From contig CALMAY010000038.1 in assembly GCA_937861125.1 (NCBI GenBank), forward strand, positions 27,942 through 91,941: 64,000 nucleotides of DNA, in the 5' to 3' direction. How positions within the stretch are numbered: the stretch's first letter is position 1; each line of letters opens with the position of its first letter. This document shows, piece after piece, positions 562 through 44,798 of the stretch. The translations under genes were made by a program, and so were the position numbers. Origin of the DNA: an uncultured bacterium. Its GTDB lineage: Bacteria; Patescibacteriota; Patescibacteriia; Magasanikbacterales; UBA922. The notes under the pieces are model-generated. The model saw only the letters and a list, made by a program, of their open reading frames with translations. It was not told where the DNA came from and ran no database searches.

Positions 562-1009
562 TTAGGTGACGAGTACCCTTCAATTTATTAACGGTGGCAA
601 TATATTCACCCGCTTCTCTAATTAATTCTTCGATGGTATGGATATCTTTTTTGGTAATAGCTTCTCTAATTTTTAAAGCAATTTGGTCTATATAAGTTAC
701 TTCTTCAGGTATTTCATCTAGATTTGTTACTCTACGTGCTATATATTGAAGATCCGATATTTTACGGTCTGGATCTGTTATTGATTCTATATATTTTTGG
801 TTTATGTCTTCAAAGAATTTTCTTACAGTTCTAGGTTGATCTTTTATTGCGTCCCAATATTTTTCCTGCCCTGTACGTTTAAAACGATTTAAGTTATGTT
901 GAATTATGCCATATTCATTTTGGTAATGATATAAGTCGTATAGAGCTTCGTTTATTTTTTCTTGTTTTTCTCGGCTAACTTCTAGTTGTATCGGTCTTTC
1001 TCGTTCCAT
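554..1009 (-). CDS. hypothetical helical protein (orphan) in an AT-rich islet
   Basis: 151-aa ORF from the track with no motif I recognise. Local composition is clearly more AT-rich than its neighbours. Confidence 0.5.
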   Translation of the reverse strand: MERERPIQLEVSREKQEKINEALYDLYHYQNEYGIIQHNLNRFKRTGQEKYWDAIKDQPRTVRKFFEDINQKYIESITDPDRKISDLQYIARRVTNLDEIPEEVTYIDQIALKIREAITKKDIHTIEELIREAGEYIATVNKLKGTRHLNR

Positions 1010-1109
1010 ATAGTTATATTATAAATAATAAATTTTTTTCTGAGTATGGAGTTTCTATGCATGGATTATTACATAATAATCTTTTATTAATCTTTGATTA
1101 ACAATATAC

Positions 1110-2315
1110 TTAGTATTCATAAATATGCCAATTCGGATCCGGTGTAATCGTATCCCATGATGAAAAATCATGTTTCTGTGCATGTGCATAGCCTGCTACT
1201 GCGATCATGGCTGCATTGTCCATCGAGTATTCGCGAGGACAGGTGAGAAACAAAATATCTAATTTCAAATTACTAATTTCTAATGACAACGTTTCACGAA
1301 GTTTTTGGTTAGCACTCACACCACCAGCGAGGATGACAGTCTTTGGGTTATATTGTTTGATTGCTCTGAGTGTTTTTTGGGTGAGGACATCGACGATGGC
1401 GGTTTCAAAACTGGCACAGAAATCTTCTTTGGTTACGCCCACTACGTCATTCTGAGCGGAGCGAGCCTGAGGTGAGCGGAGTCGAAGAATCCCGAGCATT
1501 TGTCGTATGAAGCTGGGATCTTTCGACTTCACTTCACTTCGTTGCGTTTCGCTCAAGATGACGTGATCGCGCAGCCAGTAGAGTGCCGATGTCTTGAGTC
1601 CTGCAAAACTAAAATCATAGTTTGGCTCTTTGAGCATCGGACGTGGAAACGGTATCGCATCTGTGCGTCCAGTTTTTGCGAGTGCAGAAATTTTTGGTCC
1701 ACCAGGATATTCGAGATCAAGGAGTTTGGCGACTTTATCAAAGCACTCTCCGGCTGCATCGTCGCGCGTCTTGCCGATGAGTTCGTAGACACCATGGTCT
1801 TTCATCAGGATGAGTTCGGTATGTCCACCACTGACAATCAAACAGAGCGTTGGAAATTTTAGATTTGTGATTTCAGATTTTAGATTACCTTTTTGTTCGT
1901 TGAGTAATACTGAGTAAATGTGGCCTTCTATGTGGTTTACACGAATAAGCGGAACATTCCATAGATACGAAAGTGTCTTGGCAGTCTCAACACCAACAAG
2001 TAACCCAGTCAAAAGTCCTGGTCCAGCCGTCACCGCAATAGCATCTGGTACAAATGGTGTACTTTTGGCTTCGCACTTTTGGCTTCGAACTTCACCCAAT
2101 ACTTCCTCAATCACCGGCATAATATTCTCCGCATGTTTGCGCCCAGCAAGTTCTGGAACCACGCCACCGTATGCTTTGTGAATATCAATCTGGCTCGCAG
2201 TTTTTTGTGCTACTACTTCCGCTGTGCCATCTGCGTGAAATGCTAACACAGCGGCGCTAGTGTCGTCGCAGGATGATTCGATGCCGAGGATATAGTAGGG
2301 TGCTTTATTGATCAT
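1110..2315 (-). CDS. tsaD: tRNA N6-adenosine threonylcarbamoyltransferase TsaD (Kae1/Gcp family)
   Basis: ILGIESSCDDTSAAV, HIEGHIYS, LIVSGGHTEL, FSFAGLKTSA and AGGVSANQKLRE are TsaD hallmarks. Start trimmed to MINKAPYYILGIESS (ATG 2315-2313), which gives an ATGA overlap with the upstream methyltransferase stop. Confidence 0.9.
   Translation of the reverse strand: MINKAPYYILGIESSCDDTSAAVLAFHADGTAEVVAQKTASQIDIHKAYGGVVPELAGRKHAENIMPVIEEVLGEVRSQKCEAKSTPFVPDAIAVTAGPGLLTGLLVGVETAKTLSYLWNVPLIRVNHIEGHIYSVLLNEQKGNLKSEITNLKFPTLCLIVSGGHTELILMKDHGVYELIGKTRDDAAGECFDKVAKLLDLEYPGGPKISALAKTGRTDAIPFPRPMLKEPNYDFSFAGLKTSALYWLRDHVILSETQRSEVKSKDPSFIRQMLGILRLRSPQARSAQNDVVGVTKEDFCASFETAIVDVLTQKTLRAIKQYNPKTVILAGGVSANQKLRETLSLEISNLKLDILFLTCPREYSMDNAAMIAVAGYAHAQKHDFSSWDTITPDPNWHIYEY
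1444..1563. repeat. 120-bp imperfect palindromic (MITE/REP-like) element inserted in frame in tsaD
   Basis: Left arm is acgtcattctgagcggagcgagcctgaggtgagcggagtcgaagaatcccgagc. The reverse complement of the right arm is acgtcatcttgagcgaaacgcaacgaagtgaagtgaagtcgaaagatcccagc. The 120 nt equal 40 codons. Confidence 0.75.
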
Positions 2316-2821
2316 ATCGTATAGAGATAGAGTGTCGGTTGCTTCTCCCGTTTGATCACCTCTGTTGGTACCCACTGTGGGAGTGGCCAAACATAGGAGA
2401 GTACTATACTGCCAGGTTTGAGCTCTTTTTTCAACTTCTCCATAAGTTTGGGAAACATCTCGGGCATGAGGAAAAAATAGACGTGTGTGGTGTCAGAGAG
2501 ATCGGTGTGCCAGAGATTTTTGTATCTGATCTGTACTCGACTGCGTGCAGGTGAAAACAGTCGTCGTATGTGTGCGATGATGTAGGGGAGGAGAGAGATC
2601 TCTAGTCCTGTGGCACGAGCACCTCGCTCTGCGGCAGCGATAGTGAGTCGTCCGTCACCACAACCGATATCACAAAAGACAGAATCTTTGTTTAGTTTTA
2701 GTGCGTCAATAATTGCTGATACATCATCTTTGCGTGTTGGTACCCATGGCGCGCCCTTGTATCCAGCATAGGCGAAGGTGCCAAAGATAGCGAGGAGGAT
2801 GGTAATGGTAAAAAGTTCCAT
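2312..2821 (-). CDS. class I SAM-dependent methyltransferase with an N-terminal TM helix
   Basis: Motif I DIGCGDGRL followed by an acidic LE; N-terminal hydrophobic segment. Stop overlaps the tsaD start (ATGA). Confidence 0.65.
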   Translation of the reverse strand: MELFTITILLAIFGTFAYAGYKGAPWVPTRKDDVSAIIDALKLNKDSVFCDIGCGDGRLTIAAAERGARATGLEISLLPYIIAHIRRLFSPARSRVQIRYKNLWHTDLSDTTHVYFFLMPEMFPKLMEKLKKELKPGSIVLSYVWPLPQWVPTEVIKREKQPTLYLYTI

Positions 2822-2824
2822 ATA

Positions 2825-3673
2825 TTATCGTTGAAATAGTGACCACATGGTAGAGAGTATCTGCTGCGCAGTGTCTAGTTTGTTTTGACGATGGAGTTCT
2901 GCGGCAAAACGAACACCGCGATAACTCAGTGGTGTTGAGATAATTTCCATGTAGTGTGGGTCATGTGCAAATTCTTTTTTTGCAAAATCCCAACACGCAT
3001 ATGCTTCATCGATATTGTCTGCCTGCCCAACCATCTGGAGTGTGTAGTACACAATGTCATAATATCTAAATGACCAACCACTCCATCCGCTGTCCACAAG
3101 TGTCAGTCTTCCTGTCTGCTTGTCTTTTGCTATATGCCATGGGACGAGATCGTGGTGCTGAAATGCACGAGTATCAAAATGTCGCTTGAGATATGTGTGG
3201 AGCTGTTCTGCTTGTGTCTGAGTGATAAGCGTGTGTTCCAAAAGGTACGTCACATCTGTCTCAAAACGCGGCCAATTGAGCTGACGTCTCTCGTCGCTAT
3301 CATCTCTGATCTCTGTTGGAATATCACTGTAGGGGATGTCTAGACACCATTTCAAAAACGTAAACATTTCCTGTCTGTAACTCTCGAATGCTTGCGCATC
3401 TGCTGCCGTCTGTATGTCCGCTGCGAGCCAGTCATGTGTGGTGCTGATATCGGGGTAGACGAGAGAGGTGCCATCAAATGTAGGCAGGAGAAAATCAAAT
3501 CCCACCTCTTTCCCTTGGGTGTAGTGGTAGAGAAATGTTTGGTTGTGAAACTCGCGGGTGTTTTCTACAATACCTGCCGCTGTCTTGGCGTGTTTTACAA
3601 ATGTCGGTGCGTCACCTGAAAGGTTGCGGAATATATGTATATTGGCTGTTTCTTTGATCGTGTGGTATTCCAT
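2825..3673 (-). CDS. putative phosphotransferase (APH/choline-kinase-like fold), tentative
   Basis: HHDLVPWHI ... LVDSGWSG resembles the HxDxxxxN / DxG catalytic and Mg-binding motifs of the APH family. Otherwise unrecognised. Confidence 0.35.
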   Translation of the reverse strand: MEYHTIKETANIHIFRNLSGDAPTFVKHAKTAAGIVENTREFHNQTFLYHYTQGKEVGFDFLLPTFDGTSLVYPDISTTHDWLAADIQTAADAQAFESYRQEMFTFLKWCLDIPYSDIPTEIRDDSDERRQLNWPRFETDVTYLLEHTLITQTQAEQLHTYLKRHFDTRAFQHHDLVPWHIAKDKQTGRLTLVDSGWSGWSFRYYDIVYYTLQMVGQADNIDEAYACWDFAKKEFAHDPHYMEIISTPLSYRGVRFAAELHRQNKLDTAQQILSTMWSLFQR

Positions 3674-3736: not shown

Positions 3737-3811
3737 TGGTAGCGCCAAGGGGAATCGAACCCCTGTTCTCAGGATGAAAACCTAATGTCCTAACCACTAG
3801 ACGATGGCGCC
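3737..3811 (-). tRNA. tRNA-Glu (anticodon UUC), CCA encoded
   Basis: GGCGCCATCGTCTAGTGGTTAGGACATTAGGTTTTCATCCTGAGAACAGGGGTTCGATTCCCCTTGGCGCTACCA folds as a cloverleaf by hand. Anticodon loop is TTTTCAT. Confidence 0.9.
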
Positions 3812-3818
3812 ATGTGCA

Positions 3819-4064
3819 TTATTCAAAAATGCGTCTGTATAATTTTTCTTTTTCACTACTGTTGGTTTTGAGCTGATACTCTCTTTTTCGTGCAAGCGTT
3901 CCTGATACGTATGCTTCGTAGTAGACGAGTTGGTATGGAATTTTTGAACGAATTGATTTGGTTTTACCACTATTGTGTTCCACAAGTCTTTTTCGTAGGT
4001 CTTCAGTGTATCCGATATAGGTGGTTTTGTCTATAGTGGATTGTAAAACGTATGTATAAAACAT
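3819..4064 (-). CDS. small GIY-YIG nuclease-domain protein (81 aa, catalytic domain only)
   Basis: MFYTYVLQS...TTYIGYTEDLRKRLVEHNSG is a GIY-YIG pattern (Y..Y / YIG / R / E-N). Stop lies 7 nt upstream of the tRNA-Glu 5' end. Confidence 0.8.
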   Translation of the reverse strand: MFYTYVLQSTIDKTTYIGYTEDLRKRLVEHNSGKTKSIRSKIPYQLVYYEAYVSGTLARKREYQLKTNSSEKEKLYRRIFE

Positions 4065-4980: not shown

Positions 4981-5376
4981 ATGTCAGACGTAGTCGTACC
5001 AGAGAAGTTTGCTTCTCTTGTCTCTGAAATCGAAAAGATGTCAGTACTTGATCTCTCAGAGCTCGTAAAAGTGCTTGAAGAGAAATTTGGTGTATCAGCA
5101 GCAGCTCCAGCCATGATGATGGCAGCTCCAGCAGCAGGTGCAGCAGCTCCAGCAGCAGAAGAGAAATCTTCATTTACTGTTGAGCTCACTGAAGCAGGTG
5201 ACAACAAAATCAATGTCATCAAAGCAGTAAAAGAAATCACAGGTCTTGGACTTGCTGATGCAAAAGCTCTCGTTGATGGTGCTCCAAAAGCAGTTAAAGA
5301 AGGCGTAGCAAAAGCAGACGCTGAAGAAATGAAAAAGAAAATCGAAGAAGCAGGTGGTAAAGTCACCTTGAAATAA
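4981..5376 (+). CDS. rplL: 50S ribosomal protein L7/L12
   Basis: Ala-rich hinge followed by [56 protein letters not shown]. Confidence 0.95.
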
Positions 5377-5396: not shown

Positions 5397-5445
5397 GTGA
5401 TCCTGAGCGAAATCCCGCCGTGGCGGGATGTAGTCGAAGGATCTC
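5397..5445. repeat. half-copy related to the tsaD palindromic element
   Basis: gtgatcctgagcg ... gtcgaaggatctc matches both ends of one tsaD arm (gtcattctgagcg ... gtcgaagaatccc). The centre differs (hairpin ATCCCGCC/GGCGGGAT). Confidence 0.5.
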
Positions 5446-5461
5446 TCATTCTCTAGATAAT

Positions 5462-5492
5462 AAAAACCCTGTACCTATGGTACAGGGTTTTT
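5462..5492. terminator. bidirectional rho-independent terminator
   Basis: AAAAACCCTGTACC-tatg-GTACAGGGTTTTT lies between convergent rplL and the 730-aa gene. Confidence 0.8.
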
Positions 5493-5552: not shown

Positions 5553-7745
5553 TTATAATGAAAAAGAGTACACCACATTGGAATCCAAAATGTACACAGT
5601 TTTGTTTTTTTCATCCACACTCATGCCTGTTGGATTTTTCCACTCTGCTGCGGTATATTGTTTGACCAGTTTTCCTGTCTTGTCTAGTACAACAATACGT
5701 TTATTGGTTGGCTCTAAAATGTAGAGATAGTTGACGTCAGTGTAGGTAAATAGTTCTGTTGGATTGCTCAATGCTGGGTCAAGTCCGGTAATAGAAAATG
5801 CTTCTTCAACTCCTGCAACAAATTTTTTGATTTCTCCTGATGCCGTGAGTATATAGACATCACCATCAATAGCAATCGAGACTGCGTCAGCTAGTGTAGA
5901 TCCTTCGCGCTGTGATTGGATCCATGGCGTGCCTTTGTCATAGCCTGTGGCAGTTGGGTTATGTTTATAGATTTGATTATTTTTTGCGTCTAGTATGTAG
6001 GCTCTGCGGTTGTATAGCGCGATGTCATTTGGTGCTGCATCTGTTGTCGGATAGACGATGGTTTTTTGTGAAATGGTTTGGTTGGTTGGATCAAGTGTGC
6101 CGATACTTTGTGCATCTCCGAGGAAAACAATTGTATCATTTTCTTTTGGTGTGTTGGCACGTAAGAGTGGGGGGAGTGAAGAATGATTGCGTGTATCCAC
6201 TGACCCGCCTACTATTGGTAATACATAATGTGTTGAGTCATTGGTACCATATGCAATGAGGGTATTTTGGATACGAGCGAGGCGGGTAGGGGTGGCTGGT
6301 TTTTCTGCTGTACTTGCAATGGTAGCAAGTACAGTAGGGGAAACGATAGTAATATTACGGACTTGATCCAAAAGAATGGCGATAGAATTGAGAAAAGATT
6401 GGCGTGTCTGTCTTTGTTCGTCTGTATCAGTAGGAAGTTCTTTTGCCTTTGTTTGTGCTGTTGTCAGCAAATTGAGCGCACCGCTTCGATCGTTGTATGT
6501 AAACTGTGCTTGTGCTTTTTCATAGGTACTTTGGATGTCACGTATCGAGAGGGTGTATGCTTGTTTTTGTGCTACTTGTTTTTTGTTGGCACTATAGATG
6601 ACTATGCTACTGATAAATATAGTAATAGCGAGTATGGTCCCAATAAGCAGTACTTTACTGATAAGTGGAAGATGGACAAATGATCGTTTTTTCCCCTCAA
6701 TGCTTCTCGTGAGTGTGTGAATAATTTCAGTTCGTCTATTCTTTTGATTTGTAATCAAAAACCAGACGATGACAATAAGTTCTTTGATACCTACCAAGAT
6801 TCGTTCTAATAGCGCCAGCAACATGCTTGAGGCGGTCAAAAGGACGGTACCAATACCACGTAACAAAGAGACGATAAAGGGAACCGTTGTTGTATCTGGT
6901 TCTACTGAGAGTTGTGTGTTTGTTGGTGATATTGGCTGTTGCGGATGAAATGAAAAGAGACTTTTTGCACTTTGAAGCAGTGATGGGTTGAGTGTTTCTG
7001 CTGTGTTGTCCTGTGTTTCTACAAGTTCATTAATAGAGTCTCCTTTTTGTTTGAGATGAGGTGGAATTTTTCCTGTTTTTGGTAAATCGTGTACAGAGAT
7101 AATTTTGGATACAATACCACCAAATGAGATGTCACTACGTAGGTTGGCTAGGACACGCTGGAGATGGGTAGATCCGCTCATTACATCGCGAGCAGTAATA
7201 ATTTTTTGGATTCTATCTTCTGAAAAATAACGCCCAACAGATGGTGTACCAACAAAAAAGTAATCGTGCATGTGTATACTCCCAGAGAGGACAGAAGAAA
7301 ATAGTTGTGTGGGTGTATCATCTGCTTCATTGATAATGGAGAGGTGTTTGTATTCTTGTTTGTGTTGGTAAAATACGTATGCAATCGGAGCGCCGTGATA
7401 CGATAATAAGATAGTACCACCAATCATCACACCTACAACCGCATCTACCGTTCCATCTGAAAGCATGTGGTGACTTTTACGGTTCATCTGTTCAAGGATG
7501 TGTTCAAATAGTATTTCAGGGTTATCAGTATCTTCACTGTAGTATCGGGATTCTATATCATCGATACATTGTTGTAATTCTTCAATTTGTTCTGTGGTTC
7601 CACCCGTAATTTCAATCAATGCAAATAATGAACCTTTTGGTATTTCTGTAGCAGTGGATGGTTCACTAATATGAAGCAAAACATGAGACGTTTTTCGATT
7701 GCGTCCTTCAACAAAAAATTCTTGAATTTGTGGAAACCCAGACAT
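5553..7745 (-). CDS. large membrane protein: N-terminal degenerate PP2C-like domain, TM segments, C-terminal beta-propeller-like (NHL-type) repeats
   Basis: AVVGVMIGGTILLSYHGAPIAYVF resembles the PP2C core strand. Hydrophobic segments at about aa 290-390. C-terminal recurring YILD/YILE...V motifs. Tentative. Confidence 0.35.
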   Translation of the reverse strand: MSGFPQIQEFFVEGRNRKTSHVLLHISEPSTATEIPKGSLFALIEITGGTTEQIEELQQCIDDIESRYYSEDTDNPEILFEHILEQMNRKSHHMLSDGTVDAVVGVMIGGTILLSYHGAPIAYVFYQHKQEYKHLSIINEADDTPTQLFSSVLSGSIHMHDYFFVGTPSVGRYFSEDRIQKIITARDVMSGSTHLQRVLANLRSDISFGGIVSKIISVHDLPKTGKIPPHLKQKGDSINELVETQDNTAETLNPSLLQSAKSLFSFHPQQPISPTNTQLSVEPDTTTVPFIVSLLRGIGTVLLTASSMLLALLERILVGIKELIVIVWFLITNQKNRRTEIIHTLTRSIEGKKRSFVHLPLISKVLLIGTILAITIFISSIVIYSANKKQVAQKQAYTLSIRDIQSTYEKAQAQFTYNDRSGALNLLTTAQTKAKELPTDTDEQRQTRQSFLNSIAILLDQVRNITIVSPTVLATIASTAEKPATPTRLARIQNTLIAYGTNDSTHYVLPIVGGSVDTRNHSSLPPLLRANTPKENDTIVFLGDAQSIGTLDPTNQTISQKTIVYPTTDAAPNDIALYNRRAYILDAKNNQIYKHNPTATGYDKGTPWIQSQREGSTLADAVSIAIDGDVYILTASGEIKKFVAGVEEAFSITGLDPALSNPTELFTYTDVNYLYILEPTNKRIVVLDKTGKLVKQYTAAEWKNPTGMSVDEKNKTVYILDSNVVYSFSL

Positions 7746-13914: not shown

Positions 13915-14790
13915 ATGGAACATATTATTGGTAATACACATATTGTTTCTTTGTTTGAGCGTTTGTTACAAAACGGTCAACTTGGTCATGCATATTGTTT
14001 GGTGGGGCCAGCACATATTGGAAAACACACGATAGCATGTGAGGTTGCGGCTCAGTATTTGGGTACGACCTCAGTACAGCTGCGTATGCACCCAGATATG
14101 TTTGAGTTATCCCCCGAAGACAAAGAAAATGGCAAGATAAAAATAGAAGTAGTTCGGAGTTGTAAAGAATTTCTTTCCCATACATCTGTGCATGGACGTG
14201 GATTGGTGGTGCTTATCGATGATGCGCACACATTGACAGATGAAGCGGCCAATGCGTTATTGAAGTCTATTGAAGAGCCACCCAAGAAAACATTGTTTTT
14301 GTTAGTAACTCCATTTGAATCGCTATTGCCACAGACTATCCGTTCTCGATGTCAGATACTTCAGTGTACGACTGTAGGGAGAGAGGAAATAATTCAGGCA
14401 CTTGTCACACGTGGTACATCTTTAGATGACGCACATATGTATGCGTCATGTGCGGATGGGCGTGTTGGTGTTGCGTTTGGGTGTGCAAGCTCTTTTGATG
14501 TGTATACACAGATCAATGGGTGTCGTATACAGAGTGAACGCTTGCGTCATGCACCGTTGTATGAGAAAATACAAGTAGTCCAAGATGTGACTGACGATGA
14601 GATAGTGTCGCTTTCTGAGCGAATTGCCTGCTGGTGTGTGGCAGATATGCAATATGTTCGTACAGAGATAATTCGTACGGGTACAATTGATACGGCGGTG
14701 TTAGACTATGTGTGTGGTTATCCAAAATTATTAGAAACATTGAGAACAAATACAAATAAACAACTTACTCTTGAACAATTTGTTTTTTAG
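13915..14790 (+). CDS. holB: DNA polymerase III delta' subunit
   Basis: GHAYCLVGPAHIGKHT (degenerate P-loop), LIDDAHTLTDEAANALLKSIEEPP and SRCQ. Confidence 0.75.
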   Translation: MEHIIGNTHIVSLFERLLQNGQLGHAYCLVGPAHIGKHTIACEVAAQYLGTTSVQLRMHPDMFELSPEDKENGKIKIEVVRSCKEFLSHTSVHGRGLVVLIDDAHTLTDEAANALLKSIEEPPKKTLFLLVTPFESLLPQTIRSRCQILQCTTVGREEIIQALVTRGTSLDDAHMYASCADGRVGVAFGCASSFDVYTQINGCRIQSERLRHAPLYEKIQVVQDVTDDEIVSLSERIACWCVADMQYVRTEIIRTGTIDTAVLDYVCGYPKLLETLRTNTNKQLTLEQFVF

Positions 14791-36503: not shown

Positions 36504-36941
36504 ATGAAACAGTTTGCATGTTTATTCTTGCTTGGCGGTGTATTGTTAGCTTCACCTGCACTTGCGGTTGATGAAACATCGTCCTCTACAACACCAGTAA
36601 CTGAAACAGCATCTGGTTTGGAATGTATTCAAGATGCAATTGAAACAAGAGATACTGCACTTATTGATGCATTGAGTTCATATCACGCTGCTGCAAAAAC
36701 AGCATTAGAGACACGTATCGCTGAATTAAAATCTGCGTGGGAGCAACCAAAAGGGACATATCGTAAAGCTGATATTAAAGATGTGTGGACTGAGTATCGA
36801 ATAGATCTTCGAAATGCACGAAAAGAGTTTAAATTAGATAAAAAAGTAGCGTGGGATGTATTTAAAAAGGCTAAAGCTGCATGTAAGGGTGTGCAGGTTT
36901 CGGATGATACTGGCAATTCAGCCGCAGATACAACATTATAA
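36504..36941 (+). CDS. secreted helical protein, hypothetical
   Basis: Start trimmed to MKQFACLFLLGGVLLASPALA (signal peptide). No motif recognised. Confidence 0.5.
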   Translation: MKQFACLFLLGGVLLASPALAVDETSSSTTPVTETASGLECIQDAIETRDTALIDALSSYHAAAKTALETRIAELKSAWEQPKGTYRKADIKDVWTEYRIDLRNARKEFKLDKKVAWDVFKKAKAACKGVQVSDDTGNSAADTTL

Positions 36942-37023
36942 TATTTGTACTAAAAGACATCCCTGTAATTCTGGGATGTCTTTTAATTTTATGGTATACT
37001 ATCTGTACTATTGTCCATGTATT

Positions 37024-38379
37024 ATGTCACAAAAAAAAGCATATATTGTTGCAGTCGATATGGGGTACGGTCATCAGCGTGCTGTTCATCCGTTGTTTGA
37101 CATCTCTCGTGCTCCAAAAGGATGGGATCATGATTCTGCGATGATTATCTGTGCAAATAAATATCCAGGTATACCTGAGATTGATTTTAAACGATGGAAT
37201 GGAAGCCAGGGGGTGTATGAATTGATTTCACGCATGAAACGTCTGCCAATTGTTGGTGATTGGATTTTTGGTGCTATGGATTATTTTCAGCGGATTGAGG
37301 TGTTTTATCCCAAACGTGATCTGAGTAAGCCAACTATACAGTTGAGTCAGATTTATAACATGATCAAAAAAGGGTGGGGAAGACACTTGATTGATGAGCT
37401 GAATCGTGACCCACTTCCACTTATTACCTCTTTTTTTATCCCAGCATTTTTTGCGGAAGAGCATGGGTACAAGGGTGAGATATATTGTCTGTGTACCGAT
37501 ACGGATGTTTCTCGTGCTTGGGCACCGCTGCATCCGCAAAAGAGTCGTATCACTTATTTAGCTCCAAATAAGCGTGTTCGAGAACGTCTCAAGCTTTATG
37601 GTGTACGTCCAGAAAAGATTTTTATTACAGGCTTTCCGTTGCCAAAAGAAAATATTGGTTCACCTGATACTGTTAAAACACTCAAGACATCACTTGGGTG
37701 CCGTATAGGCAATCTCGATCCACATGGTCGGTACCAAAAGAAATACCAGCAAATGCTTCAGTTTTACCTTGGTTCGCCATTTTGTGATTTGCGGGCCAAG
37801 CATCCGTTTACTATTACCTTTGCAGTAGGAGGTGCGGGGGCACAGCGAGAAGTGGGAATCGAGATTTTGCAAAGTTTGCGGACGCACATTGATGCTGGTG
37901 CTGTGAGGCTTAATCTTGTTGCCGGATCTCGCGCTGATGTGTTTAGTTTTTATGAAGCAGAAATTAAACGTTTGGGCTTGGATCATCGTCATGATCAAAC
38001 AGTTCGTATTATTTATGATGAAGATAAGTTCCGTTATTTTCAAAAATTTGATGAAGCATTACTCACCACAGACGTGCTGTGGACCAAACCAAGTGAATTG
38101 TCATTTTACGCTGGGCTAGGACTTCCGATCATTATTGCCCCAACGATCGGTTCTCAAGAAGAGTATAATAAAGCTTGGTTACACGCAATTGGTGCTGGGT
38201 TTGAGCAAAACGATTCACGATATACTCATGAGTGGTTATTTGATTGGCTAGAGAGCGGTTGGCTCGCAGAGGCTGCGATGAGTGGATTTTTACATGCACC
38301 GAGAAATGGGGCGTATCATATTGCGGATATTGTACTCAACGGCAAGAAGAGTGAAATTGAAGATGTGCATTTGTTGTAG
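37024..38379 (+). CDS. putative GT-B glycosyltransferase (MGDG-synthase/UgtP/MurG-like N-terminus), tentative
   Basis: Start trimmed to MSQKKAYIVAVDMGYGHQRA (G.GH motif). The remainder is unrecognised. Confidence 0.35.
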   Translation: MSQKKAYIVAVDMGYGHQRAVHPLFDISRAPKGWDHDSAMIICANKYPGIPEIDFKRWNGSQGVYELISRMKRLPIVGDWIFGAMDYFQRIEVFYPKRDLSKPTIQLSQIYNMIKKGWGRHLIDELNRDPLPLITSFFIPAFFAEEHGYKGEIYCLCTDTDVSRAWAPLHPQKSRITYLAPNKRVRERLKLYGVRPEKIFITGFPLPKENIGSPDTVKTLKTSLGCRIGNLDPHGRYQKKYQQMLQFYLGSPFCDLRAKHPFTITFAVGGAGAQREVGIEILQSLRTHIDAGAVRLNLVAGSRADVFSFYEAEIKRLGLDHRHDQTVRIIYDEDKFRYFQKFDEALLTTDVLWTKPSELSFYAGLGLPIIIAPTIGSQEEYNKAWLHAIGAGFEQNDSRYTHEWLFDWLESGWLAEAAMSGFLHAPRNGAYHIADIVLNGKKSEIEDVHLL

Positions 38380-43165: not shown

Positions 43166-44689
43166 ATGACAGAAAAAGAATTATTTCCAATCATCGCAAC
43201 TCTTGCCGAAAAACTTGATGTAGAAGTATACGCTGTTGGTGGTCATGTGCGTGATCGCTTGCTTGGTATTGAACAAAAAACAGTTGTGGTAGAAGAAAAC
43301 AGAATTATAGCGGCGCAAAAAAAAGATATTATCGAAGGTGGAGATGATGTAGTAGTTGAGACAATTATCAAAAAGCGTGATATTGATTTTGTGGTTGTAC
43401 CTGGAAAGACTGATATTGGTGGTGTTGCGTTTGCGACTGCATTTGATGAGGTGATGGAGCAGTCAGGAAGTTTGGTATTGTTTGAACAATTTAATACCGC
43501 ACGCTATGTATTTGACGATATTGAGATAGAATTTGCTGGTGCACGTAAAGAAGCCTATGACCCATCATCGCGCAAACCGATTGTGGTGAGTGGAACACTC
43601 CTCGAAGATCTGGCTCGACGTGATTTTACCGTCAATGCAATGGCGCAACGTGTGACGAATGATGGTCTTGGTGAGATAGTTGACCCATATGACGGACAGA
43701 AAGATTTAGCAGAAAAAATACTTCGTACACCGCTAGATCCAATGGAAACATTTTCAGAGGATCCACTGCGTATTATGCGTGCAGCGCGCTTTGCTGCACA
43801 ACTCAATTTTAGTATTGAAGCTGCAACGCTCAAGGCGATGTATGATGTGCGTGAACGTCTCTCTATTATCTCAGCTGAGCGTATTGCTGAAGAGTTTTTC
43901 AAATTACTTGGTACAACACAGCCATCCGTCGGGCTTTGGATTCTGTATCAGACACACATCTTTGATCAATTCTTGCCTGAAGTGCCAGCACTGAGCGGAG
44001 TAGAGGAGATCGGTGGTCAGGGACACAAGGACAATCTGACACATACATTCAAAGTGGTGGACAATCTTGCGACACGAACAAACAAACCACTGTTGCGTTA
44101 CGCAGGGCTGATGCATGATATTGGCAAGCCTGAGACCAAGAGTTTTATCAAAGGTCGTGGGTGGGCGTTTGATATGCACGAGCATGTTGGTAAGCGGATT
44201 GTTCATGAAGTTGCTAAACGTTTGAAGATGAGCATCGCGGATACACGCTATGTTGCAAAACTCGTTCGCTGGCATCAACAGCCGATTGCATTGATGGATG
44301 CGACAATTACCGACAGTGCTGTACGGCGTTTGGTTGTCTCACTTGGTGACGAGATTGACGATCTTTTGAAGTTATGTCGCAGCGATATTACCACTGGTAA
44401 TCCAAACAAGCTCGAGAAGCGCTTGAAAAATTACGATGTTCTCGAAAAGAAAATTATTGAAGTGATAGAAAAAGACAAGCTTCGTGCCTTTCAGTCTCCA
44501 CTTCGTGGTGAAGAAATTATGCAGCTCTCAGGACTCAAACCTGGCCCAACGATTGGAAAAATCAAAGAGGCGATTGAGGAGGCGATTCTAGAAGGTGAGA
44601 TTCCAAATGAGTATGAGGCGGCCAAAGCGTATTATGAGAAAATTAAAGATACATATTTGAAAGATGTGAATGATTGGGAAAAAGAATAA
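43166..44689 (+). CDS. cca: CCA-adding enzyme / tRNA nucleotidyltransferase with HD domain
   Basis: YAVGGHVRDRLLG...DIDF, RRDFTVNAMA, DPLRIMRAARFAAQL and HDIGKP. About 30 aa are inserted between GG.VRD and DID. Confidence 0.8.
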   Translation: MTEKELFPIIATLAEKLDVEVYAVGGHVRDRLLGIEQKTVVVEENRIIAAQKKDIIEGGDDVVVETIIKKRDIDFVVVPGKTDIGGVAFATAFDEVMEQSGSLVLFEQFNTARYVFDDIEIEFAGARKEAYDPSSRKPIVVSGTLLEDLARRDFTVNAMAQRVTNDGLGEIVDPYDGQKDLAEKILRTPLDPMETFSEDPLRIMRAARFAAQLNFSIEAATLKAMYDVRERLSIISAERIAEEFFKLLGTTQPSVGLWILYQTHIFDQFLPEVPALSGVEEIGGQGHKDNLTHTFKVVDNLATRTNKPLLRYAGLMHDIGKPETKSFIKGRGWAFDMHEHVGKRIVHEVAKRLKMSIADTRYVAKLVRWHQQPIALMDATITDSAVRRLVVSLGDEIDDLLKLCRSDITTGNPNKLEKRLKNYDVLEKKIIEVIEKDKLRAFQSPLRGEEIMQLSGLKPGPTIGKIKEAIEEAILEGEIPNEYEAAKAYYEKIKDTYLKDVNDWEKE

Positions 44690-44730
44690 GAATAAGATTA
44701 TCAAACAGTATTATCATATCAAATCTTAAT

Positions 44731-44752
44731 TTTTAATCTCAATCTTAGTCTT
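44731..44752. repeat. intergenic motif TTTTAATCTCAATCTTAGTCTT (AATCTN hexamer run)
   Basis: 17/17 identical to 48087..48103; 21/22 over the longer span. Confidence 0.6.
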
Positions 44753-44769
44753 ATTTTTCACATTGCGTC

Positions 44770-44798
44770 TTGCTTCTCACATCAAAATACGCTACACT
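44770..44798 (+). promoter_or_regulatory. promoter TTGCTT-N17-TACACT for yidC
   Basis: -35 at 44770-44775 and -10 at 44793-44798. Confidence 0.5.

Follow-up and report, generated by a model that had tools for sequence, protein, structure and literature searches.

A palindromic hairpin-forming element, probably a translated repeat, in the variable linker of TsaD from a Candidate Phyla Radiation bacterium

Rickettsia is the best-known host of palindromic repeats that lie in frame within essential genes. The locus analyzed here raises the question of how DNA of this kind comes to lie within the coding sequence of an essential enzyme in the gene-dense, reduced genomes of the Candidate Phyla Radiation (CPR), and what becomes of it there. 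The DNA is a 64-kb stretch of contig CALMAY010000038.1 from an uncultured bacterium (the whole stretch is called the window below), whose source appears, from the names attached to its TsaD and DnaE homologues, to be a member of the CPR (Patescibacteria) near the Magasanikbacteria. Its tsaD gene, on the minus strand at positions 1110 to 2315, contains a palindromic element of 121 bp at 1444 to 1564. We consider this element to be probably a non-autonomous hairpin repeat made of inverted units, which now occupies the variable linker of TsaD, is most probably translated, and resembles the Rickettsia palindromic elements (RPEs).

The element (ACGTCATTCTGAGCG...CGCTCAAGATGACGT) is a composite of two inverted units and a central spacer. 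A gapless repeat finder misses it because its arms are only about 75% complementary, with small indels, and gapped self-alignment was used instead. Global alignment of the element with its own reverse complement scored 108, compared to 39.2 ± 11.1 for 500 shuffles (maximum, 77), a symmetry far beyond chance. The mRNA-sense strand was predicted to fold with −58 kcal/mol (z = −4.9; none of 200 shuffles did as well) and the element as DNA with −27.8 kcal/mol (z = −2.8), a value equalled by no shuffle. GC content is 52.5%, compared to 42.3% for the window. An initial annotation of this DNA had described a palindrome of 120 bp at 1444 to 1563; the palindrome stands, but it measures 121 nt and ends at 1564.

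Each arm fits the 24-position pattern GTCATYYTGAGCG-N22-GTCGAARRATC without a mismatch, such that the element amounts to two inverted copies of a unit of about 46 nt, GTCAT-YYT-GAGCG...GTCGA-ARR-ATC. Unit A, the left arm (1446 to 1491, plus strand), reads GTCAT-TCT-GAGCG-N22-GTCGA-AGA-ATC, and unit B, the right arm in opposite orientation (1517 to 1562, minus strand), reads GTCAT-CTT-GAGCG-N22-GTCGA-AAG-ATC. The outer helix of the unit, P1, is internally compensated in both (ATTCT/AGAAT in A and ATCTT/AAGAT in B), with different pair sets in the two arms, TC/GA and CT/AG. Fold predictions make the central spacer (1492 to 1516) the loop of a long hairpin. In this copy, the inner hairpins of both units have decayed, and the long arm-to-arm hairpin is energetically dominant. 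Because each arm is a self-folding unit, the architecture resembles that of the doublets of repetitive extragenic palindromic (REP) sequences known as REPINs.

Within the tsaD open reading frame (ORF), the element provides 40 in-frame codons (1443 to 1562, minus strand; VILSE...AQNDV, residues ~251 to 290; translation, VILSETQRSEVKSKDPSFIRQMLGILRLRSPQARSAQNDV) between the flanks ...FSFAGLKTSALYWLRDH and VGVTKEDFCASFE..., in agreement with the initial annotation, which had given exactly 40 codons and an open frame. A plus-strand reading reported at that time, SLRFAQDDV, was likewise recovered, in ORF 1500 to 1862. Apart from the element, tsaD is intact. The ATG at 2315, rather than the upstream TTG at 2390 in the minus-strand ORF 1110 to 2390, was taken as the start codon because public gene calls record a 401-aa product. 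This product matches PF00814 (E = 7.7e-88) and retains each of the 75 columns that are invariant in an alignment of 98 sequences, including H128 and H132 of the HxxxH motif and D366. Its AlphaFold2 (AF2) model, computed from that alignment, has a mean predicted local distance difference test score (pLDDT) of 90.6, with a core above 90, and matches TsaD of Escherichia coli and Salmonella (4YDU and 3ZET) with template modeling (TM) scores of 0.90 to 0.92. The protein thus belongs to the TsaD/Kae1/Qri7 family by its PF00814 domain, its ASKHA fold, and its family-invariant residues. The insert itself was modeled with pLDDT values of 57 to 80 as three short helices between two long confident helices, and with this lower confidence it would be a helical protrusion on a normal TsaD fold. 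Together with the orthologue alignment, the model agrees with the earlier placement of the element in a variable surface linker.

Several independent records indicate that the element is real, lineage-specific DNA. Several samples yielded the exact 401-aa TsaD, on 16 contigs in all, of which ENA ERZ724532 NODE_4 is the longest (266,703 bp). An independent assembly of a relative, L001, encodes a TsaD (P0001) of 93% identity and contains the element with 121 of 121 positions identical. The possibility that this identity reflects special conservation was rejected, as a surrounding block of about 400 nt is nearly identical anyway; it is uninformative on this point because the element sits in a near-identical block of a mosaic gene. 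Over window positions 700 to 2900, tsaD was seen to be a mosaic of near-identical and 35 to 40% divergent blocks relative to L001, and downstream of the gene the alignment between the two contigs breaks off completely. Together, these two observations suggest frequent recombination.

At the next level of relatedness, the element is absent. P0002, P0003, P0004, and P0006 (78 to 81% identity) have the linker KLSISNGFTSFLPNLLGHFGMSTP at its site, and the DNA encoding this linker is non-palindromic, with a self-complement score of 18. The locus of one relative, L002, is syntenic with the window and has a non-palindromic linker of equal frame between tsaD flanks that are nearly identical at the DNA level. 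The anticipated lineage specificity of the 40 aa is therefore borne out by the orthologues. Compared to its closest relatives, the window lacks a native linker of about 24 aa and has the 40-aa element in its stead, a replacement and not an addition. What had been annotated as an inserted element thus does lie in frame in the linker, but it takes the place of native residues, and each of its arms is a self-folding unit. In an AF2 model, the native linker of P0002 is also a low-confidence coil, which points to a flexible surface loop in either state.

Contrary to what a sequence unique to tsaD would require, a third unit was found at 5397 to 5443 (plus strand). This solo unit has one mismatch to the pattern, folds with −21.5 kcal/mol, and is intergenic, after rplL (4981 to 5376) and before a canonical terminator hairpin (5462 to 5492); a diverged unit is present at the syntenic spot of L002 (7077 to 7106), a relative of 81% identity. 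The solo unit may belong to the 3′ end structure of rplJL. With up to 4 mismatches allowed, the window contains three units only (0 in 5 window shuffles), no more appear in another 20 kb of this contig, and the copy number in this genome looks low.

Beyond this genome, the exact unit pattern was found in 91 stretches of a viral-contig collection and in at least 120 stretches of a genome collection, in a scan that did not include the source genome. Among the matches listed, genomes with the unit come from Acidobacteriota, Clostridia, Fibrobacter, Bacteroidota, Verrucomicrobiota, Chloroflexi, Gemmatimonadota, and Patescibacteria, and cultured carriers include Acidobacteriaceae, Occallatibacter, Bifidobacterium, and Empedobacter. 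The suggestion of a dispersed repeat of uncultivated bacteria was therefore correct as to dispersal and too narrow as to hosts. Among phage-like contigs, some hold as many as 13 units within 14 kb, often arranged as inverted pairs of 100 to 130 bp, which is the architecture of the tsaD doublet; five inverted doublets were found in L048, and others in the Patescibacteria loci L106, L132, and L174. A composite element gave no match when BLASTed against cultured phage genomes. L048, L043, L013, L076, and other IMG/VR contigs (samples 3300031555, 3300029305, and 3300032167) are related and phage-like, share terminase, portal, capsid, and tape-measure genes, and are dense in units, partly inside ORFs. 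Unlike the inverted doublets, some units form regular tandem arrays, at L161 494 to 642 (period, 56 nt), L158 4799 to 5347 (period, 256 to 257 nt), and L066 8826 to 9137 (period, 138 nt). A unit in a metagenome-assembled genome labeled Rickettsiales (L103) was considered as a link to RPEs and set aside; it is intergenic in a genome of 53% GC and uninformative on RPEs.

Variation among the copies argues for a conserved structure. The two Y and two R positions of P1, which the search pattern left free, form Watson-Crick pairs in 226 of 236 distinct units (CC/GG, 149; TC/GA, 52; CT/AG, 21; TT/AA, 4), while the GTCAT..GAGCG and GTCGA..ATC blocks were fixed by the pattern and their conservation was not independently measured. 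The inner segment folds as a hairpin whose stems comprise 105 different sequences and whose loops are mostly GNA. In a set of 57 different 36-nt units, pairing holds for 97.9% of cells, and changes on both sides were counted in 66, compared to 18.9 ± 3.3 in shuffles (0 of 500 reach 66); the signal was lost when the partners were slid. These compensatory changes imply that selection acts on the unit as a hairpin of single-stranded DNA or RNA.

Lying in frame within genes is characteristic of the unit family. For about 20% of units, the surrounding frame stays open over 150 nt or more in both directions, a share that is an upper bound given the high GC content of many of these genomes, and about 80% are outside long frames. 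Two in-frame copies were checked with Pfam: in a Parcubacteria RecG, the DEAD domain is split by ...CHPERSPYSDAVEGS...SLRYAQND..., and in a Chryseobacterium Mfd, the copy reads VILNAAQRNEES...TLRFAQNDK. A further candidate, VILSESAAESKDP..., lies in frame in an Acidobacteriales protein that is ribonucleotide-reductase-like by sequence only. A typical unit is open in 4 of 6 frames, and the phase used in RecG differs from that in TsaD, in line with the account of RPEs in PMC10969869.

The loop of TsaD has been occupied repeatedly. Among the best 120 TsaD homologues, an insert of the form VI(L/A/P)...(R/Q)(N/D)D is present in 19, the window being the 20th; 16 of the 19 are in the loop used in the window and 3 in a second loop near residue 120 to 160. 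In L003, L005, L007, L301, L302, and L303, the insert DNA is palindromic with GTCAT...ATGAC termini and represents different subfamilies (GTCATTGCGAG, GTCATTCCGAG, and GTCATCCTGAG); distant orthologues that possess a segment at this place, then, show palindromic DNA with those termini as well. A neighbor-joining tree places the insert-bearing proteins in about nine separate positions, interspersed with TsaD proteins that have either a conserved native linker of 27 to 29 aa (N.LSAM..NP...PAGIFG.Q....TIN) or a minimal loop of 7 to 13 aa. In this set, palindromic insert and native linker never occur together in one protein, and sister pairs can differ in loop state, as do the window and P0002, or P0069 and P0065 (87% core identity). 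A Magasanikbacteria genome (GCA_000996965.1) has a palindromic family unrelated to ours, CTCCCCCTTTCCAAGGGGGAG..., in the same loop (L306, tsaD at 6001 to 7185), where it encodes SPPFQGGDQEGV...PPLTPPWHGGE; peptides like this one were also noticed in P0036 and P0078. Non-CPR TsaD proteins (up to 48% identity, among the matches listed in a metagenome scan) have short connections at the loop and no elements.

DnaE from the same gene neighborhood served as the single control protein. The insert signature was found in none of 120 DnaE homologues, despite three times the residues, and their only internal inserts of at least 15 aa are two inteins and one 21-aa segment. The inteins are 431-aa intein-like insertions in the CPR homologues P0148 and P0172, for which the Pfam domains listed are of intein and LAGLIDADG type; length varies very little among the other 118. 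Regarding the second variable loop of TsaD, the window (1855 to 1886) has there three copies of the AT-rich motif AATCTRAAATY, which occurs nowhere else in the window (0.34 expected) and encodes GNLKSEITNLKF. This loop is hypervariable in homologues too, and P0065, P0069, and P0109 have a palindromic-type insert, VIAS...PRND, in it.

On these data, the element would be a non-autonomous hairpin-forming repeat with the architecture of a REP doublet or of a MITE (miniature inverted-repeat transposable element), and it may have arrived in the TsaD loop through a mobility, recombination, or repair event. It would be read in the phase GTC ATY (Val-Ile) to AAT GAC (Asn-Asp), which has no stop codon, and because its length is also a multiple of three, the gene stays open. 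The translated product would be a flexible helical protrusion of about 40 aa that leaves the TsaD core undisturbed and is presumably tolerated rather than required, the loop being dispensable. Replacement of the central ~24 aa of the native linker would be part of this course, perhaps after an earlier loss of the linker, a step that is possible because minimal loops of 10 aa also occur. Two routes are compatible with the data: a reduction of the native linker to a minimal loop, followed by insertion, or an exchange of the loop as a cassette via the conserved flanks.

A number of results weigh against this explanation. The native linker left no remnant in the tsaD of the window, and a simple cut-and-paste insertion fails to explain this. 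No direct repeat indicative of a target-site duplication was found at the junctions in the window, L003, L005, L007, L301, L302, or L303. No transposase, REP-associated tyrosine transposase (RAYT), or integrase was found in the window, covered by Pfam for ORFs from 8.4 to 55.9 kb and by gene tables for the ends, or in 20 kb of flanks; the scanned ORFs gave housekeeping genes only. All-versus-all clustering of 4,764 ORFs from 211 pattern-match loci also revealed no recurrent transposase, only phage structural genes. In 84 kb of the source contig there are 3 units at 2 loci, leaving recent activity in this genome unproven, and the decayed inner hairpins of the tsaD copy suggest that it is old. 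Taken together, the missing duplication, the missing transposase or RAYT, and the two loci in 84 kb point to an old, low-copy relic and not to an active burst. A protein search with the 40-aa peptide gave 0 matches at E ≤ 0.001 among 1.8 billion representatives, with no shared words in another search, and that the loop is translated is something we infer. Finally, random insertion with tolerance alone does not explain the frequent occupation of TsaD, and random insertion does not account for a native linker that was lost cleanly or for a reading phase that is always the same.

A bolder version of the same explanation we offer tentatively and think possible without believing it probable. In it, the GTCAT...GAGCG unit defines a family of mobile, structured repeats that crosses phyla and has a mobilizing activity of its own, and the TsaD linker of CPR bacteria, with the second loop to a lesser degree, is a preferred site of landing or retention at which the native linker has repeatedly been replaced in one phase. 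We found no description of the unit family in the literature on the motif, the encoded peptides, or CPR in combination with MITEs or palindromes.

Among the alternatives, the one that survives best, though we regard it as rather unlikely, is that homologous recombination brought in the palindromic linker, along with the tsaD sequence beside it, from another strain or species of the CPR. The conserved flanks (FSFAGLKTSALYWLRD and DFCASFE) could then be the recombination arms, and turnover among the VILS, VIAS, and VIPS subtypes could, with the same reservation, be due to gene conversion with other copies. The clean, remnant-free replacement of the linker in the close sister pairs named above would follow naturally, and the mosaic of tsaD between the window and L001 indicates recombination at this gene; the near-identical DNA flanks shared with L002 also speak for an exchange. 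An exchange would also be consistent with the single reading phase of all TsaD inserts, given that a second open phase is available, the one found in RecG. However, clades differ in the subfamily of the insert and in its position (between 0 and 5 codons away from the conserved LRD(H/N)), which still calls for several independent origins, and a donor allele was not identified.

Rather than a tolerated repeat, the insert could have been exapted, with a hairpin or peptide that functions at this site and with selection behind its recurrence. We think this improbable, and equally so its candidate forms, which are an mRNA structure that controls expression or decay of tsaD and a helical arm that replaces the native linker in contacts with partners or tRNA. 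The idea gains from the contrast between 19 of 120 CPR TsaD proteins and 0 of 120 DnaE proteins, although that control is limited to one protein, and from the mutual exclusion of insert and native linker. It also gains from the recovery of the exact protein on 16 contigs from several samples, and from inserts that appear to be vertically inherited, diverging like the protein core (identities of 96% versus 87%, 95% versus 93%, and 75% versus 84%). On the other hand, many lineages thrive with a loop of 7 to 13 aa, some inserts decay fast (39% identity versus 84% for the core), and neither insert nor native linker has a confident structure in AF2. The unrelated family in the same loop of L306 argues for a permissive sink over a specific function.

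It is very improbable that the 40-aa segment is removed before or during translation, be it through ribosomal bypass or as an intervening sequence that is intron-like or processed by an RNase. A very stable mRNA hairpin (−51 to −58 kcal/mol) would bring the junctions together. However, no stop codon or frameshift requires removal, all variants among full-length TsaD matches, a set biased to intact ORFs, are in frame and open, and an essential transcript would be lost if the mRNA were cut and not religated. In Rfam, searched at the gathering threshold and with E up to 10, the element matches no family, including group I and II introns. Nor does the insert have the character of an intein or self-splicing intron, as it has 40 aa, Pfam gives TsaD only, and Rfam gives no ribozyme. 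A resemblance to hammerhead or other ribozymes was considered separately and found no support in Rfam. Least credible of all, and close to impossible in our judgment, is an ordinary vertical protein linker with coincidental symmetry or an assembly artifact: the loop is indeed variable in all TsaD proteins, but the symmetry is far beyond chance, GC content is 10 points over that of the window, both arms fit a cross-phylum pattern without mismatch, the nearest relatives lack the element, and its sequence is identical in independent assemblies.

The reading of the element as a translated hairpin repeat was further compared with known systems. RPEs are palindromic repeats of about 100 to 150 bp that lie in frame in unrelated housekeeping genes, leaving the ORF open and encoding a fold-compatible peptide, according to the part of PMC10969869 that summarizes Ogata et al. 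2000. The tsaD element is likewise a 121-bp palindrome with a long hairpin, in frame in an open ORF and compatible with the protein fold, and the RecG and Mfd copies are in frame too; the RPE analogy drawn in the initial annotation thus holds. The likeness is one of behavior, and the host belongs to the CPR, not to Rickettsia. In contrast to RPEs, the tsaD element consists of two copies of a shorter, self-folding unit common to many phyla, about 80% of the unit family is outside ORFs, the apparent copy number here is low, and one protein loop has been colonized repeatedly.

REP sequences are short imperfect palindromic units with a conserved 5′ motif, GT(A/G)G, and are species-specific, mostly intergenic, and often near gene 3′ ends. 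They and their REPIN doublets are reportedly mobilized by RAYT transposases. The unit described here is similarly a short imperfect palindrome with a covarying stem, forms inverted doublets that fold into a larger hairpin, and is also found mostly between genes, often near their 3′ ends. It differs in its motif (GTCAT...GAGCG), in its distribution over many phyla, in the intragenic, in-frame position of the tsaD copy, and in that 84 kb of the contig revealed neither a RAYT nor an IS200-like gene. We have not filed the element as a REP because this copy is not extragenic and no RAYT was found. In our view, it behaves like an RPE and looks like a REPIN, and we assign it to neither.

Two further systems share fewer features. 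Bacterial MITEs inside genes (ERIC, Correia/NEMIS, BOX, and Nezha) are small non-autonomous inverted repeats that sometimes give in-frame fusions (PMC10969869, PMC3184786, and PMC2229807), and the tsaD element is also small, intragenic, in frame, and built of inverted repeats. Unlike these, it has no target-site duplication and is palindromic throughout, with no unique core flanked by terminal inverted repeats, and the DNA examined revealed no parental insertion sequence sharing its ends. PARCELs are palindromic coding repeats of 25-residue tandem units in surface or membrane proteins of unknown function, with a patchy distribution among distant microbes (PMC2996958). Coding sequence with dyad symmetry and patchy spread among distant microbes are common to both, whereas the tsaD element is a single insertion in a housekeeping enzyme with no evident sequence resemblance to PARCELs.

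What is new relative to these systems is the CPR host, the structured unit found across phyla, and the recurrent occupation of one loop in an essential enzyme. The phenomenon is thereby tied to a hairpin repeat conserved with compensatory changes across phyla and phage-like contigs. With the TsaD loop occupied in about nine clades and no occupation in the three-times-longer DnaE, the locus offers a system for asking whether such repeats are tolerated, targeted, or selected, how repeat DNA becomes protein, and what share of protein length variation in CPR bacteria is caused in this way. Should the tentative reading of a self-mobilizing family with a preferred site in TsaD prove true, this enzyme would be a natural model for selfish hairpin DNA turned into protein in minimal genomes. 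The units also create spurious "hypothetical proteins" (VILSE..., HPERS..., ...SLRMT, and ...AQDD) that can mislead annotation and homology searches.

The surroundings of the element are conserved in gene order. The window and the relatives with P0002, P0003, P0004, and P0006 share rplJ-rplL, a 282-aa gene, a methyltransferase gene, tsaD, one short non-conserved ORF, and dnaE. In the window, the short ORF is a 151-aa frame (554 to 1009) without a Pfam match; a different 189-aa ORF is in its place in the syntenic L002. Other inverted repeats of the window were considered as relatives of the element and rejected: palindromes at 36904 to 37025 and elsewhere are AT-rich, intergenic, and unrelated, and an unrelated inverted repeat at 14415 to 14561 is within an ORF that is holB-like by reading of its translation. 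The strongest other imperfect palindrome (44626 to 44793; 168 nt) is AT-rich, spans from the end of a gene of the CCA-adding enzyme/poly(A) polymerase family to the start of yidC, and is also unrelated to the tsaD element. Two genes from tsaD, an 81-aa GIY-YIG ORF (3819 to 4064) adjoins a tRNA gene (3740 to 3811); a second 81-aa GIY-YIG ORF lies about 10 kb off on the same contig (L304, 17901 to 18146), and a GIY-YIG ORF is also present nearby in the relative L002.

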